DNA from: an uncultured Bacteroidales bacterium
GTDB taxonomy: Bacteria > Bacteroidota > Bacteroidia > Bacteroidales > UBA7960
Reading direction: 5' to 3'
Assembly: GCA_964491395.1 (NCBI GenBank)
Contig: CAZBGI010000008.1
Coordinates: forward strand, 6,176-70,175
DNA length: 64,000 nucleotides
Shown here piece after piece: positions 7,113 to 11,394 of this stretch. The notes beneath the pieces were generated by a model. The model was not told the DNA's origin. It worked only from the letters and a program-made list of their open reading frames with translations, and did not search any database. The position numbers and the translations under genes are program-made. Positions within the stretch are counted from its first letter, which is position 1. Each line of letters opens with the position of its first letter.

Positions 7113-7301
7113 ATGAAACGATTAAGAAAAAACCAGAACCGGATGATTTTTGGTGTTTGCGGAGCATTGGGTGAATACTTCCATATCGATCCCACCCTCA
7201 TTAGAATCCTTTTTCTGATTAGCATTATTTTTTATGGTACCGGGTTGTTGTTATACCTGATTCTTGCCATTGTGATTCCTGAGGGTTATTATGAGTATTG
7301 A
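7113..7301 (+). CDS. PspC-domain membrane protein
   Basis: 62 aa. R.....MIFGVCGALGEYFHIDPTLIRILF followed by one transmembrane segment is the PspC-domain pattern. Confidence 0.75.
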   Translation: MKRLRKNQNRMIFGVCGALGEYFHIDPTLIRILFLISIIFYGTGLLLYLILAIVIPEGYYEY

Positions 7302-7785
7302 TGTTGTATTGCTATCTTTGGGTATTCTTTGCCTTATACTTGGGGTTTTGGGGGCCTTTATTCCAGTGTTGCCGGGTCCTCCGGTGAGTTTTGCAGGATT
7401 GTTGCTGATTCATTTCACCGACTTTGCTGATATCTCTCCTAATATTTTGTATACCCTGGGGATATTGGCTTTGTTCATTACCGTGGCAGATTATCTTTTG
7501 CCCATATGGGGAACACGCATAGGCAAAGGAAGTAAACATGGCGTTTTCGGGGCCACCGTTGGATTGATAGCAGGCATCTTATTTTTCCCCCCTCTGGGTG
7601 CCATCATTGGTCCAATTGCCGGAGCCTGGCTGGCCGAAAGAGTCAATGGCAAAAATAACAACGACGCATTTCGTTCTGCCCTGGGCAGCTTCATGGGTTT
7701 GCTCTTCGAAGTGGTACTAAAAATTGTTTTCGCTGTCGTTGCTATAGGATATGCCTTATCTGGAATGATTATAAATTCACCCTGA
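7291..7785 (+). CDS. DUF456-like integral membrane protein
   Basis: 164 aa with four hydrophobic segments. The LPGPP..F.GLLL motif after the first helix is as I remember for DUF456. An 11-nt overlap with the PspC gene suggests co-translation. Confidence 0.6.
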   Translation: MSIDVVLLSLGILCLILGVLGAFIPVLPGPPVSFAGLLLIHFTDFADISPNILYTLGILALFITVADYLLPIWGTRIGKGSKHGVFGATVGLIAGILFFPPLGAIIGPIAGAWLAERVNGKNNNDAFRSALGSFMGLLFEVVLKIVFAVVAIGYALSGMIINSP

Positions 7786-7822: not shown

Positions 7823-7830
7823 TAAATTTG
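7823..7830 (+). promoter_or_regulatory. Bacteroidetes -7 promoter box (TAAATTTG) for the methyltransferase/peptide/radical SAM cassette
   Basis: Exact TAnnTTTG match 36 nt upstream of ATG 7866. It is the only such box before the three same-strand genes. Confidence 0.45.
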
Positions 7831-7865: not shown

Positions 7866-8510
7866 ATGACACAACAGTTCACACAAGCCATTTCACGCCG
7901 ATACGATGAATTATCAGGTCAGGAATGCTGCCTGTCCTGTGGAGGAGCCATTAATTATGCCGATATACAACCCGGGTACAAATGTGCTGATTTAGGCTCA
8001 GGTAAGGGGTTTGATGTATTGAAAATGGCCACCATGGCAGGGCCCGAAGGGTTCGCCTGGGGAATTGATGTTTCCGATGCTATGATGGATACCGCCAGAG
8101 AAAACGCACGAAAGCTGAATCTGGATAATGTTGAATTCATAAAAAGTGAACTCGAGGACATCCGTCTTGAGAGCGAAACCCTTGATTTGATCCTATCCAA
8201 CTGCACCCTCAACCACAGCTTAGATCAAGGAAAGGTATGGAAAGAAATCTATCGTGTTTTAAAACCTGGCGGTTGTTTTGTAGTAAGTGATATATTCTCA
8301 ACAGAAGAAGTCCCCGGGAAATACAGGAATGATCCGGAAGCAGTGGCCCAATGCTGGGCAGGAGCTGTTACCAAAGAGACATATTTTCACCATTTGAAAG
8401 AAGCCGGTTTTCAGTCTGTAGAAATTATCGAGGAATCAGAACCTTATGCCAAAGGAGAAATTCACGTTAGCAGTTTTACCATCAAAGGATGTAAACCCGA
8501 TAAAAAATAA
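7866..8510 (+). CDS. ArsM-like class I SAM-dependent methyltransferase (short form, 214 aa)
   Basis: SAM-binding DLGSGKGFDV. The blocks GIDVSDAMMDTARENARKLNLDNVEFIKSE, LILSNCTLN and VLKPGGCFVVSDI closely resemble arsenite methyltransferases. Cys21/22/25 (ECCLSCGG), Cys113 (SNC) and Cys163 (QCWAGA) are present, and Cys163 lies exactly 50 residues after Cys113. Confidence 0.8.
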   Translation: MTQQFTQAISRRYDELSGQECCLSCGGAINYADIQPGYKCADLGSGKGFDVLKMATMAGPEGFAWGIDVSDAMMDTARENARKLNLDNVEFIKSELEDIRLESETLDLILSNCTLNHSLDQGKVWKEIYRVLKPGGCFVVSDIFSTEEVPGKYRNDPEAVAQCWAGAVTKETYFHHLKEAGFQSVEIIEESEPYAKGEIHVSSFTIKGCKPDKK

Positions 8511-8584
8511 ACCATGTCTGCATGGATTTTTTGTACCTTGCAGCACGATTTCGATATATTTTTTTACCCAAACAAAAGATTATT

Positions 8585-8686
8585 ATGAGAAACTTAGTAA
8601 AAAAAACCACACAACAAACAACAGAAAAAAAACAAGCACAATGCTGTGCTAAACTTTCTAAAAACCAAGTGGGTTGCCACGATTAA
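8585..8686 (+). CDS. Unannotated 33-aa Cys-bearing small ORF, candidate precursor/substrate peptide of the adjacent radical SAM-SPASM enzyme
   Basis: Hand-translated because it is below the 60-aa cutoff of the ORF track. ATG 8585-8587, TAA 8684-8686, product MRNLVKKTTQQTTEKKQAQCCAKLSKNQVGCHD. Same strand as its neighbours, 74 nt after the methyltransferase stop and 35 nt before the radical SAM start. It has a Lys/Thr/Gln-rich N-terminal half and three Cys in the C-terminal 14 residues. Coding status is not proven. Confidence 0.5.
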   Translation: MRNLVKKTTQQTTEKKQAQCCAKLSKNQVGCHD

Positions 8687-8721
8687 TCTGATTTTTATCC
8701 CGGATAGAACCCTTACCTGCT

Positions 8722-10038
8722 ATGCCACTTGCTCCCTCAGCACACAATATCATCTCCCCCGTTAGCGAAGGGAAAGAGTACATCATCGTAAATGTTTTAT
8801 CCGGGCATGCAGATCTTCTCTCTCAGGAAGAATATCAGACGCTTACATCTGATCCTGCCAACGCCTATCCCCGGGAATTTATTGACAAAGGATATGTAGT
8901 CAATCCCCAAAAAGAAGAGCTTGACTATCGTCTCAAGTACATTGGTTTTCTTGAAAATCGCGAAGAAGAAGAGGTTCAGCTCTTTTTTGTCCCCACCTAT
9001 AACTGTAACTTTACCTGCTCCTATTGCTATCAAAGTGAATATCCGCAAAAGGAGCAAAAGTTTACCAAAGAAATAACCGATGCATTTTTCAGGTTTATTG
9101 ATGAAAAATTTGCCGATCGCAGGAGTTACATAACCTTATTCGGCGGGGAGCCTCTTCTGGCATCTCCTTCCTACAAAGAAAACATCGCTTATTTTCTTTC
9201 GCAGGCCAAACAACACCGGCTTGATATTGCCATTGTTACCAACGGATATCATCTGAAGGAGTATTTACCAATGCTTGATGCTTCGTTTGTACGTGAAATA
9301 CAAATTACCTTAGATGGTACAGCAGAGGTACATAACAAACGCAGACGATTGAAAAGCAATGCACCCACATTTGACACCATTGTCGATAATATTGATGCAT
9401 GCCTTGGGAAAGATATTTCGGTGAACCTCCGGATGGTTGTGGATAAGGAAAACATCAGCAATCTCCCGGCAATGGCCGATTTTGCCATTGAAAGAAGATG
9501 GACCGAACACCCCTTGTTTAAAACCCAGATTGGCCGCAATTACGAACTTCATTACTGCCAGAATGGTCAGTCCCTCCTTTTTAACCGGATTTCTCTTTAT
9601 GAAGAATTGCTGAAACTGATTCAGGAACATCCACGGATAATCCAATTTCATAAACCAGCATTTTCAGTAATGAAATTTTTGCAGGAGAATGGGAAATTAC
9701 CGGATGCCTTGTTTGATTCTTGTCCTGCCTGTAAAAGTGAATGGGCCATGGATTATACAGGTAGTATTTATTCATGTACCGCAACGGTGGGAAAACCGGG
9801 TGAAAAGCTTGGAACATTTTATCCCGAAATCAGCCTTGACGAAGAAAAAGTAAAAATATGGCAGCAACGAGATGTGCAGCATATCGAAGAATGCCGCCAT
9901 TGCAACAAGCAACTCATTTGCGGAGGTGGATGCGGTTCTATTGCATCCAATACCGGTAAAAATATTCTTTCCCCCGACTGCCGACCCATTGAAAGTCTCA
10001 ACAGTCTTGGAGTGAAAGCCTATTTTCTCCATGAATAA
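8722..10038 (+). CDS. Radical SAM / SPASM-domain enzyme (peptide-maturase-like)
   Basis: 438 aa. Radical SAM triad CNFTCSYC (C95, C99, C102). Full seven-Cys SPASM signature: C-x9-G-x4-C (CKSEWAMDYTGSIYSC), C-x2-C-x5-C-x3-C (CRHCNKQLICGGGC), and a final Cys in SPDC. The ~90-aa N-terminal extension contains IIVNVLSGHADLLSQEEYQTL. Confidence 0.85.
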   Translation: MPLAPSAHNIISPVSEGKEYIIVNVLSGHADLLSQEEYQTLTSDPANAYPREFIDKGYVVNPQKEELDYRLKYIGFLENREEEEVQLFFVPTYNCNFTCSYCYQSEYPQKEQKFTKEITDAFFRFIDEKFADRRSYITLFGGEPLLASPSYKENIAYFLSQAKQHRLDIAIVTNGYHLKEYLPMLDASFVREIQITLDGTAEVHNKRRRLKSNAPTFDTIVDNIDACLGKDISVNLRMVVDKENISNLPAMADFAIERRWTEHPLFKTQIGRNYELHYCQNGQSLLFNRISLYEELLKLIQEHPRIIQFHKPAFSVMKFLQENGKLPDALFDSCPACKSEWAMDYTGSIYSCTATVGKPGEKLGTFYPEISLDEEKVKIWQQRDVQHIEECRHCNKQLICGGGCGSIASNTGKNILSPDCRPIESLNSLGVKAYFLHE

Positions 10039-10090: not shown

Positions 10091-10098
10091 TACTTTTG
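10091..10098 (+). promoter_or_regulatory. Bacteroidetes -7 promoter box (TACTTTTG)
   Basis: Exact TAnnTTTG match after a T-run that follows the radical SAM gene, 84 nt upstream of ATG 10182. Confidence 0.4.
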
Positions 10099-10181
10099 TG
10101 CTTATTGAATGGTTATCCACTATACCCTTGCCTGAATCAAATGATGAACGGTGTAAGCATGATAAAAAAGAAGCGCGACTT

Positions 10182-10733
10182 ATGAATCATCATCAAAAAA
10201 AAAATACCCCCGGCATTACTTACCGGTTAATCTTTTTTTGCCTTGCCGGTAGTCTTTTGCTGGTTTCCTGCATCAACGAAGAGGTATGCGAAGATGTGGC
10301 ATCAGTGCCGGCGAGAATAGGGTTTTACGCAGAAAACCCCGATGAAACGGTGGATGATCCTGTACCCTTAGGTATCAATAATATTACGATTTTTGGTGCC
10401 GGAAATGATTCAATTTTGTATGAACATCAGGATAATGTTAACCAGGTAGAATTACCACTGGATGCAAATACCGATAGCTGTGCCTTTATTTTCAGAATTT
10501 CGGACTTGGATGACGAAAAGTTTGTAGAAGATACTCTATGGCTTGTATATCAACGCAAACCCAACCTCATATCAATGGAGTGCGGGTTTACAACCTTTTT
10601 TGAACTTATCCGGTTACATTATTCCCGCAATATTATTGATACGGTAGAAATTGATGATGCAAACATAACCACTTCATTAAATGAACATATTAAAATATAT
10701 CCCTGGTATTCTGATGATGATGATGATTTATAG
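10182..10733 (+). CDS. Hypothetical lipoprotein
   Basis: Start moved to ATG 10182. The resulting N terminus MNHHQKKNTPGITYRLIFFCLAGSLLLVSC carries a lipobox (LVSC). The upstream extension in the ORF track has no signal-like character. The C terminus is acidic (SDDDDDL). Confidence 0.55.
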   Translation: MNHHQKKNTPGITYRLIFFCLAGSLLLVSCINEEVCEDVASVPARIGFYAENPDETVDDPVPLGINNITIFGAGNDSILYEHQDNVNQVELPLDANTDSCAFIFRISDLDDEKFVEDTLWLVYQRKPNLISMECGFTTFFELIRLHYSRNIIDTVEIDDANITTSLNEHIKIYPWYSDDDDDL

Positions 10734-11394
10734 CCTGAGTGCTTTAAGTCAGCCCCCCCCTGCAGAGGAAAACCAGGAAGAAGAAGCCGAAAGCAACCGG
10801 GACACCCTTCCCTCTTTTCAACCCCACCCTTTTATCAGGGTGGGATTTGATGTTTCATCAATAGGACGAATCATCACCGAACCTGAAGTACGGCAATTTG
10901 AATTTTCAGCAGATACTGAATTTAAATACAACTGGTTTGCCGTGCTTGAAGGAGGGTTGGCCAATGTGGAAGCCGAAAGAGAGGAATTCCACTACCAGGC
11001 TTCGGGATATTTTGGTCGGTTGGGTGTTGATTATAACCTGTTGAAACGCAATCAGCCTTCTCAGAATGATTTGATATTGGTGGGTTTGCGCTATGGCTTC
11101 AGTACATTGAATCATGAAACTCCTTTCTATCAGATTTCCAACGCTTATTGGGAAAATACGCATGGCTCAATCGATAAAGGTAACTTTAACCTGCACTGGA
11201 TTGAACTTAGCGGAGGAGTAAAAACAGAAGTATTTTCCAATTTTTTTCTGGGTTGGTACCTTAAAACACGAATCAGAATAGCAGAAACACGTGATCCTGA
11301 GCTAAATCCCTATTATATTGCCGGTTACGGCAGGGGAACAAGAACAGCCCCGGTGATGGTTCATTTTAATATCCTGTATCGTTTTGAGCTATAA
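10681..11394 (+). CDS. Hypothetical exported protein, probable small outer-membrane beta-barrel
   Basis: 237 aa with signal peptide MNILKYIPGILMMMMIYSLSALSQ. Alternating hydrophobic pattern ends in ..FNILYRFEL. A 53-nt overlap with the preceding lipoprotein gene suggests a two-gene module. Confidence 0.5.
   Translation: MNILKYIPGILMMMMIYSLSALSQPPPAEENQEEEAESNRDTLPSFQPHPFIRVGFDVSSIGRIITEPEVRQFEFSADTEFKYNWFAVLEGGLANVEAEREEFHYQASGYFGRLGVDYNLLKRNQPSQNDLILVGLRYGFSTLNHETPFYQISNAYWENTHGSIDKGNFNLHWIELSGGVKTEVFSNFFLGWYLKTRIRIAETRDPELNPYYIAGYGRGTRTAPVMVHFNILYRFEL

Follow-up and report, generated by a model that had tools for sequence, protein, structure and literature searches.

The 64,000-nucleotide stretch of an uncultured Bacteroidales genome analysed here (the window) carries three co-oriented genes that occupy 7866-10038 of the plus strand, with a G+C content equal to that of their flanks. 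They encode a short methyltransferase of the arsenite methyltransferase (ArsM) type, a 33-residue precursor peptide and a radical S-adenosylmethionine (SAM) peptide maturase. Together with a fusion of thioredoxin and thioredoxin reductase (Trx::TrxR) encoded on another contig of the same genome, they constitute one co-inherited module. Its parts are of known kinds, namely an ArsM fold and a radical SAM/SPASM maturase, but their obligatory combination is new. No curated family or database name describes the module, and a full-text literature search found no published description of it, the only relevant paper being concerned with the CCxxC motif of ArsL. We propose, with a probability of about 0.4, that the module performs a peptide-assisted methylation of the ArsM type: the maturase would process the peptide, peptide and enzyme would share the thiol ligands of a thiophilic centre, this centre would be methylated, and Trx::TrxR would reset the system. 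The components, including a recognition element (RRE) for peptides that ribosomes synthesize and that are then modified post-translationally (RiPPs), are located as follows.

7866-8510, plus strand: mini-ArsM methyltransferase, 214 amino acids (aa), from its open reading frame (ORF), profile matches, structure alignment and model.
8585-8635, plus strand: leader of the precursor peptide, MRNLVKKTTQQTTEKKQ, from the alignment of orthologues.
8636-8686, plus strand: core of the precursor peptide, AQCCAKLSKNQVGCHD, with the stop codon, from the alignment of orthologues and the codon pattern.
8722-10038, plus strand: RRE-radical SAM-SPASM peptide maturase, 438 aa, from Pfam and NCBIfam profiles, PDB sequence matches and the fold of its model.
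Contig C84 of the same genome, 4425-5699, unlinked and outside the window: Trx::TrxR fusion, 425 aa, with CPPC and CATC motifs, 63% identical to its orthologue.

The grouping of these genes rests on two surveys. A scan anchored on the methyltransferase, using one genome per species, returned at least 572 loci, and the best 80, all of which contain the methyltransferase, were analysed. These loci are labelled Bacteroidota, Spirochaetota (including Leptospirales), Ignavibacteria and Margulisbacteria. The order methyltransferase-peptide-maturase is the same in 78 of them; the maturase lies in a different position in one of the other two, and the last locus ends at a contig edge. The second survey was anchored on the maturase and drew 301 genomes evenly from the order to which the window belongs. 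Forty-six of them (15%) carry the maturase, and 40 loci were analysed. In these Bacteroidales loci the peptide gene lies directly upstream of the maturase gene in 40 of 40 cases, and the methyltransferase gene is found upstream in 38 of the 39 that could be assessed, being 2.9 kb away in the remaining genome. The genomes with the short methyltransferase are these same 46 and no others, all of the remaining 255 being without it (Fisher's exact test, 2e-55). Short methyltransferases of sister clades (37-49% identity) are likewise followed by a peptide with the same core, the maturase and the reductase, and a metagenome scan yielded 566 further loci. Such co-occurrence and adjacency in hundreds of genomes argue that the association of methyltransferase, peptide and maturase is not due to chance, and the synteny on which the initial annotation had made a functional link depend is thus a general property of the system. 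A correlation between the pairwise identities of methyltransferases and maturases (r = 0.53) was discarded, given spurious ORFs in the set and the correlation that shared ancestry produces anyway.

The fourth part escaped the initial annotation because it lies outside the window in this genome. Elsewhere, a 422-aa fusion of thioredoxin (CPPC) and thioredoxin reductase (CATC) is encoded directly 3' of the maturase gene, in about 44 of the best 80 loci and in about 38 of the 40 maturase-anchored loci. It was detected in 43 of the 46 carriers, with one fragmentary case among the other 255 sampled genomes (Fisher's exact test, 2e-47). Of the three apparent misses, two have an adjacent copy cut by the contig end, and only a partial copy was matched in the third. 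The neighbours of the C84 gene are unrelated, encoding an acyl-CoA carboxylase and RlmH. Since the distribution of Trx::TrxR tracks that of the carriers, it is not a housekeeping gene, and the C84 copy belongs to the system; in one other genome (G067) the fusion is also found on a different contig from the maturase. The catalytic cycle of ArsM requires disulfide reduction and depends on thioredoxin, through a disulfide-bond cascade in CmArsM. As a separate observation, four loci (L050, L054, L210, L212) contain an extra stand-alone thioredoxin-like ORF between the methyltransferase and peptide genes.

The methyltransferase bears the motifs ECCLSCGG (C21, C22, C25), DLGSGKG at residues 42-48, SNC (C113) and QCWAGA (C163), with 50 residues between C113 and C163, exactly as the initial annotation had listed them. 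Alignment with solved ArsM structures (CmArsM 4fr0, CrArsM 5evj) places C25, C113 and C163 on C72, C174 and C224 with the same 50-residue spacing, C25 in LSCGG standing opposite C72 in YGCG. In CmArsM, these three cysteines hold As(III). All five cysteines of the mini-ArsM are invariant in 120 homologues with identities down to 57%, as are D42, G44, G46 and G48 of the SAM-binding motif, and the ArsM thiol triad is invariant also in the sister clades. Pfam assigns the protein to Methyltransf_31 (E = 2e-31). Its top NCBIfam match is the arsenite methyltransferase NF008823 (186.4 bits, profile positions 60-234 of 272), followed by other ArsM subfamilies, with UbiE-type families scoring far lower. 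CrArsM (5evj) and CmArsM head the PDB sequence search. A model built from 25 homologues reached a predicted local distance difference test (pLDDT) score of 91; ArsM structures fill the first 11 places among its PDB fold matches, with query-normalised template modelling (TM) scores of 0.74-0.81, and human AS3MT appears at rank 16. The enzyme is thus an ArsM derivative, nearer to ArsM than to generic UbiE-type methyltransferases by sequence, profile and fold. The resemblance to ArsM noted earlier is borne out by all of these searches, and the opposite outcome then envisaged, a generic UbiE-type enzyme with non-conserved cysteines, was not encountered. Public databases name the homologues 'methyltransferase domain-containing protein' or, at the Joint Genome Institute (JGI), also 'arsenite methyltransferase' or 'UbiE', and no curated NCBIfam or Pfam family claims either the mini-ArsM or its maturase neighbour.

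Compared with the full-length ArsM of its own genome and with other canonical ArsMs, the mini-ArsM has lost about 45 of the residues that separate the N-terminal helix from the GCG motif, and as a consequence of this deletion the N-terminal CC pair now abuts C25 (CCLSCG). The C-terminal extension of canonical ArsM is also missing, in keeping with the earlier description of a short enzyme devoid of the usual C-terminal domain. C21 and C22 are candidate counterparts of the fourth conserved cysteine of ArsM (C44), which serves the disulfide cascade, as they lie at the place to which such a deletion would bring the CC motifs near the N-terminus of canonical ArsM. The CCLSC loop is the part of the model with the lowest confidence (about 68), as expected if this segment is mobile. 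Some orthologous methyltransferases end in cysteine-rich tails (KKCCCCS, KCCCNN, GECSWCN, RGCCCSR; L045, L064, L122, L150, L154, L157, L159, L161, L172 and others) that recall the C-terminal tails of canonical bacterial ArsMs; the enzyme of the window ends in KGCKPDKK, with a single non-conserved cysteine.

On the evidence of its codons, the small ORF encodes a real, translated peptide. In the 16-residue core, of which 128 distinct DNA versions were compared, the invariant residues each use all of their synonymous codons and all three stop codons occur, which indicates selection on the peptide and not on RNA. The last 16 residues read A-Q-C-C-A-K-x-S-x-x-x-x-G-C-H-D and are nearly invariant, and a stop codon follows them directly in 144 of 144 cores, the core thus being always C-terminal. 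An in-frame TGA in one orthologue proved to be merely its stop codon. The N-terminus conforms to MK(S/T)L(I/V)KK in 69 distinct orthologous peptides and is kept across phyla. The starts of the orthologues place the beginning of the 33-aa peptide at 8585 (MRNLVKK...), and a 54-codon reading from 8522 was dropped on these grounds. The small ORF with a vicinal cysteine pair and a third cysteine that the initial annotation had singled out is therefore genuine and under selection, with its start moved from 8522 to 8585. The peptide has no match among the NCBIfam and Pfam models, and its gene, where called in public annotations, is named only 'hypothetical protein'. Two loci (L125, L126) encode a peptide, MKTLIKKKSAAQCCATAQCCAKISSIVAGCHD, in which the AQCCA unit is duplicated in tandem. 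Rare core variants in L127, L151, L179 and L185, of the form ALCCAKT(T/S)...PGCH(N/D), with Q to L, S to T and D to N replacements, show which positions tolerate change; the three cysteines, the lysine, the glycine and the histidine never vary.

The cysteines of enzyme and peptide are also connected by a trade-off, examined in 158 distinct enzyme/peptide pairs. Not every methyltransferase has the N-terminal CC pair, which is present in 143 of these enzymes and absent from 15. A CC pair occurs in the peptide leader in 12 of the 143 pairs whose enzyme has its own and in 11 of the 15 whose enzyme does not (Fisher's exact test, 5e-8, phylogeny ignored). The leader pairs of the latter (ACCAPEK, SCCAVE, GCCPEE, KCCTAT and SCCTAT among others) belong to several unrelated leader types. 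The simplest reading of these sequences calls for one vicinal pair of cysteines close to the active site, supplied by either the enzyme or the leader, and would imply that the methyltransferase binds the leader-bearing peptide directly. A second vicinal cysteine pair in the leader, such as KKACCAPEK, was recorded in L089, L096, L097, L099-L155, L184, L193 and L199.

By sequence and model, the 438-aa protein is a peptide maturase. It matches Pfam Radical_SAM (E = 3e-19), and its CX3CX2C motif (C95, C99, C102) is invariant in 69 orthologues. Nine more cysteines are invariant or nearly so (C279, C334, C337, C352, C391, C394, C400, C404, C420); they include a CX2CX5CX3C motif, and the region aligns with the SPASM domain of the thioether synthase CteB (5wgg), the nearest solved structure by sequence (E = 1e-11). 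This amounts to a full SPASM domain, with cysteines sufficient for two auxiliary [4Fe-4S] clusters. The model (pLDDT 85.6) shows three strands followed by three helices in residues 1-85 (pLDDT about 80-94), an RRE-like shape that suggests a RiPP recognition element. The best fold matches of the full-length model are CteB, anSME, SuiB, TigE and ChlB, of which CteB and SuiB bear an RRE. The protein passes no curated NCBIfam subfamily cut-off, as shown by its scores against CefB (153/600), TIGR04463 (149/525), PapB (122/340) and the SCIFF maturase (80/425); the Clo7bot maturase is also among its best matches, far under the cut-off. The 25 best of the 83 NCBIfam families matched are RiPP maturases and other non-arsenic radical SAM enzymes (for example MoaA, NirJ and viperin), and neither ArsL nor ArsS is among these 25. 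The statement in the initial annotation that neither ArsS nor ArsL is a 438-aa SPASM protein fits this result, profile, structure and fold all identifying an RRE-SPASM peptide maturase. Close relatives of the protein fall into at least 3,736 clusters at 90% identity, named only 'radical SAM protein' or 'uncharacterized protein'.

The peptide-assisted methylation that we favour, whose chemical steps we infer, could proceed as follows. First, the 33-aa peptide is translated. Second, its MK(S/T)L(I/V)KK leader, presumably the handle for the RRE domain of the maturase, would dock there, and the core would be modified in a manner that constrains the peptide, most likely through a cysteine-derived thioether cross-link as in the nearest relatives of the maturase. 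Third, the leader-bearing peptide would bind the mini-ArsM, whose complete ArsM thiol triad would lie beside the methyl group of SAM and which also has a mobile CC pair. A thiophilic centre, for which a trivalent metalloid such as As(III) or Sb(III) is the likeliest candidate, would then be bound jointly by cysteines of peptide and enzyme and methylated from SAM by ArsM-style oxidative methylation. Fourth, a disulfide left on enzyme or peptide after turnover would be reduced by Trx::TrxR with NAD(P)H, a step suggested by the known disulfide cascade of ArsM and by the strict co-occurrence of the reductase. Finally, the product would likely remain inside the cell, because no transporter, exporter or leader peptidase is conserved with the module in the loci examined. 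A secreted antibiotic was rejected for want of a conserved transporter or peptidase and in view of the invariant core.

Several observations make a metalloid link suggestive: the conserved triad, the CCxxC motif, the CC-plus-one pattern of the peptide, the co-inherited reductase and an enrichment of Acr3. A CCxxC motif is an experimentally demonstrated three-cysteine As(III) site in ArsL (bioRxiv 10.64898/2026.04.29.721666); here a motif of this type, CCLSC, is carried by the methyltransferase and not by the maturase. Acr3 is encoded in 36 of 46 carriers (78%) and in 127 of 255 other genomes (50%; odds ratio 3.6, p = 3.5e-4), and canonical ArsM is weakly enriched (21/46 vs 78/255, p = 0.06), both comparisons ignoring phylogeny, habitat and genome size. 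SelD, taken as a control, shows no enrichment in the same 301-genome sample (46% vs 43%, p = 0.75). A link to selenium was discarded on this ground and because no selenocysteine codon replaces any cysteine of the peptide in the 144 cores. The genome of the window does possess a canonical arsenic operon.

Contig C139 of the same genome, 2762-4715 and flanks (locus L081, 330-3385), minus strand: canonical operon arsR-arsC (thioredoxin type)-arsM-acr3, unlinked to the cassette; its ArsM has 283 aa and scores 338 bits against NF008823.

The arsR, arsC and acr3 genes for which the initial annotation had recommended a survey are thus all present, on another contig and apart from the cassette. A link of the cassette to the ars detoxification system is not supported, and the module is not the ordinary arsenic-detoxifying methylase of the cell, which is encoded elsewhere in the genome.

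Other observations weigh against a metalloid-methylating module. None of the best 80 loci has Acr3, ArsC or ArsR within 10 kb, the mini-ArsM stays below the family cut-off of NF008823 (186.4 vs 263 bits), and 10 of the 46 carriers lack Acr3 while 25 lack canonical ArsM. The enrichment of Acr3 may stem from habitat or genome size, and the CC trade-off has four exceptions and a statistic that ignores phylogeny. Simple chelation explains neither the near-invariance of the non-cysteine core residues (A, Q, K, S, G, H, D) nor the need for a radical SAM maturase. Moreover, if the maturase converted all three cysteines of the peptide into thioethers, no thiol would remain for a metalloid.

An ordinary RiPP tailoring pathway is the strongest of the alternatives, and one that we consider somewhat unlikely. 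The maturase would introduce cross-links, and the ArsM-derived enzyme would methylate the peptide itself on a cysteine thiol, the histidine, the lysine or the C-terminal aspartate. The cysteines of the enzyme would serve only to grip a cysteine-rich substrate, by a transient disulfide or a shared zinc ion, and Trx::TrxR would keep the thiols reduced. Methyltransferases are common RiPP tailoring enzymes, and the strict co-inheritance with the peptide/maturase pair, the lack of a physical link to ars genes and the high conservation of non-cysteine core residues, which suggests specific recognition by an enzyme, would all be accommodated. A peptide methylase would, however, have no obvious need for the ArsM triad with its spacing, for a CC pair in cis or in trans, or for a disulfide reductase, all of which are deeply conserved. 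The exporter and leader peptidase expected for a secreted natural product do not accompany the module, and the conservation of the core is far above that of typical antibiotic RiPPs.

The product could instead be a redox cofactor or a low-molecular-weight thiol made from the peptide, comparable to pyrroloquinoline quinone (PQQ) and mycofactocin, which seems to us quite improbable. The matured peptide would act inside the cell as a dithiol/disulfide carrier recycled by Trx::TrxR, and the methyltransferase would either complete its synthesis or take it as a cosubstrate. A core that is invariant across phyla and always C-terminal agrees with such a role, as do an RRE-bearing radical SAM/SPASM enzyme of the kind found in PqqE and MftC, a dedicated reductase that travels with the module when export genes do not, and neighbouring MarR-type regulators, DUF302 or DUF1847 proteins in some lineages. 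On the other hand, no cofactor-using enzyme was seen with the module in the loci examined, its patchy spread (15% of the genomes of the order) fits an accessory function better than a core cofactor, and the ArsM triad is left unexplained.

Still more speculative, and less probable than a cofactor, is a ribosomal-peptide-dependent metalloid pathway in which the CC...C of the matured peptide, acting in trans like the CCxxC tail of ArsL, would bring As(III) or Sb(III) to the mini-ArsM for methylation. In its boldest form, the metalloid would be delivered to the SPASM enzyme, where a carbon radical on the peptide would yield a peptide-bound C-As bond. What results would be a ribosomal peptide or a cofactor that bears arsenic, and the pathway would be the first of its kind. 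A classical arsenic-detoxifying ArsM that neighbours an unrelated peptide/maturase pair by chance is hardly credible: some pipelines do label the homologues 'arsenite methyltransferase' and the ArsM cysteines are there, but the methyltransferase co-occurs with the maturase in 46/46 carriers vs 0/255 other genomes in a fixed gene order, a separate full-length ArsM sits in the ars operon of the same genome, and 0/80 loci have ars neighbours. The remaining probability belongs to chemistry outside our favoured mechanism and the tailoring, cofactor and chance-neighbour explanations.

The sequences around the cassette include candidate regulatory elements and neighbouring genes.

7113-7301 and 7291-7785, plus strand: PspC-domain gene and DUF456 membrane-protein gene, upstream neighbours that overlap by 11 nt.
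7823-7830, plus strand: TAAATTTG, which fits TAnnTTTG, the -7 promoter consensus of Bacteroidota, 36 nt 5' of the methyltransferase start.
8512-8525, plus strand: CCATGTCTGCATGG, a short hairpin with ATTTTTTG after it, in the interval that separates the methyltransferase and peptide genes, from a consensus scan only.
10098-11394, 3' of the maturase gene: DUF6452 lipoprotein-like gene and DUF6048 gene, mutually overlapping.

The TAAATTTG box is the sole plus-strand TAnnTTTG match between 7313 and 10091 and is a possible, weakly indicated start of a transcription unit; across the window the motif is not enriched (77 vs 66 expected). The hairpin looks like a terminator or attenuator. A PspC gene, a DUF456 gene or both lie directly upstream of the cassette in L001-L006, L009, L011, L014-L016, L018-L020, L024, L031 and L042. 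They are kept there in Bacteroidales relatives only, in most of these down to about 58% methyltransferase identity, and are outside the conserved core of the module; this neighbourhood may reflect a lineage-specific link to membrane stress or just conserved synteny. On the other side, a TACTTTTG box at 10091-10098 precedes the DUF6452 and DUF6048 genes, which adjoin the maturase gene in close relatives too and lie several kb away in more distant ones. These genes are probably outside the module. Other lineages have other neighbours: a MarR regulator upstream of the cassette in Spirochaetota, DUF302 and DUF1847 proteins downstream of it in some lineages and, in Prolixibacteraceae-like genomes (L034, L053, L054, L060, L062, L069, L072, L076), a 79-aa protein encoded directly upstream of the methyltransferase. 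The latter has two predicted membrane helices and GC(N/T/A)SG(A/S)C and CKTC motifs, and matches no Pfam or NCBIfam family.

If peptide-assisted methylation holds true, RiPP biochemistry would gain a new branch: a widespread radical SAM/SPASM system with a nearly invariant precursor, a metalloid-type methyltransferase and a private thioredoxin reductase. For the microbiology of arsenic and metalloids, it would represent a second lineage of ArsM that is frequent in anoxic sediments, in soda lakes and in groundwater. Its genes are at present scored as 'arsenite methyltransferase' in gene surveys, although the lineage probably has another function or needs a peptide partner, which bears on arsM counts in metagenomes. 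The module may link ribosomal-peptide chemistry to the thiol chemistry typical of arsenic, and would be categorically new if the metalloid-peptide interpretation is correct. With four genes, one of them encoding a peptide of only 33 aa, it is small enough to be amenable to heterologous expression.

Four groups of known systems invite comparison. First, the mini-ArsM shares with ArsM and AS3MT enzymes (CmArsM 4fr0/4fsd, CrArsM 5evj, human AS3MT 8xt7; NF008823) a Rossmann SAM domain followed by an As-site subdomain, the equivalents of C72, C174 and C224, a possibly equivalent extra cysteine pair near the N-terminus and a thioredoxin connection, known for ArsM and represented here by the co-inherited reductase. 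It differs from them in its size (214 aa vs about 270-400 aa), in its location outside ars operons in the best 80 loci and in its pairing with a peptide and a maturase. Second, the arsinothricin (ArsL + ArsM) and arsenosugar (ArsS + ArsM) pathways also combine a radical SAM enzyme with an ArsM-type methyltransferase, and a CCxxC motif, which in ArsL binds As(III) through its three cysteines, occurs in the module as well. Neither ArsL nor ArsS is a SPASM/RRE peptide maturase, and no precursor peptide is known for either. The module carries its CCxxC on the methyltransferase (or a CC on the peptide leader), in contrast to the radical SAM location in ArsL, and has no ars operon context. Third, the ranthipeptide and sactipeptide systems of CteB/SCIFF and PapB resemble the module in their RRE-radical SAM-SPASM enzyme with two auxiliary clusters and in the adjoining short cysteine-bearing precursor. 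The maturase is only about 17-18% identical to CteB in structural alignment, the core of its peptide has only three cysteines and is nearly invariant across phyla, and an ArsM-type enzyme and Trx::TrxR are obligatory partners. Finally, the PQQ (PqqA/PqqE) and mycofactocin (MftA/MftC) systems likewise rely on a small conserved precursor with C-terminal key residues and on an RRE-dependent radical SAM/SPASM enzyme, and have a product that is probably intracellular. Whereas enzymes of the PqqB/C/F or MftD/E type belong to those systems, the module lacks them and no dependent dehydrogenases were identified for it; its partners are instead an ArsM-like methyltransferase and the Trx::TrxR fusion.

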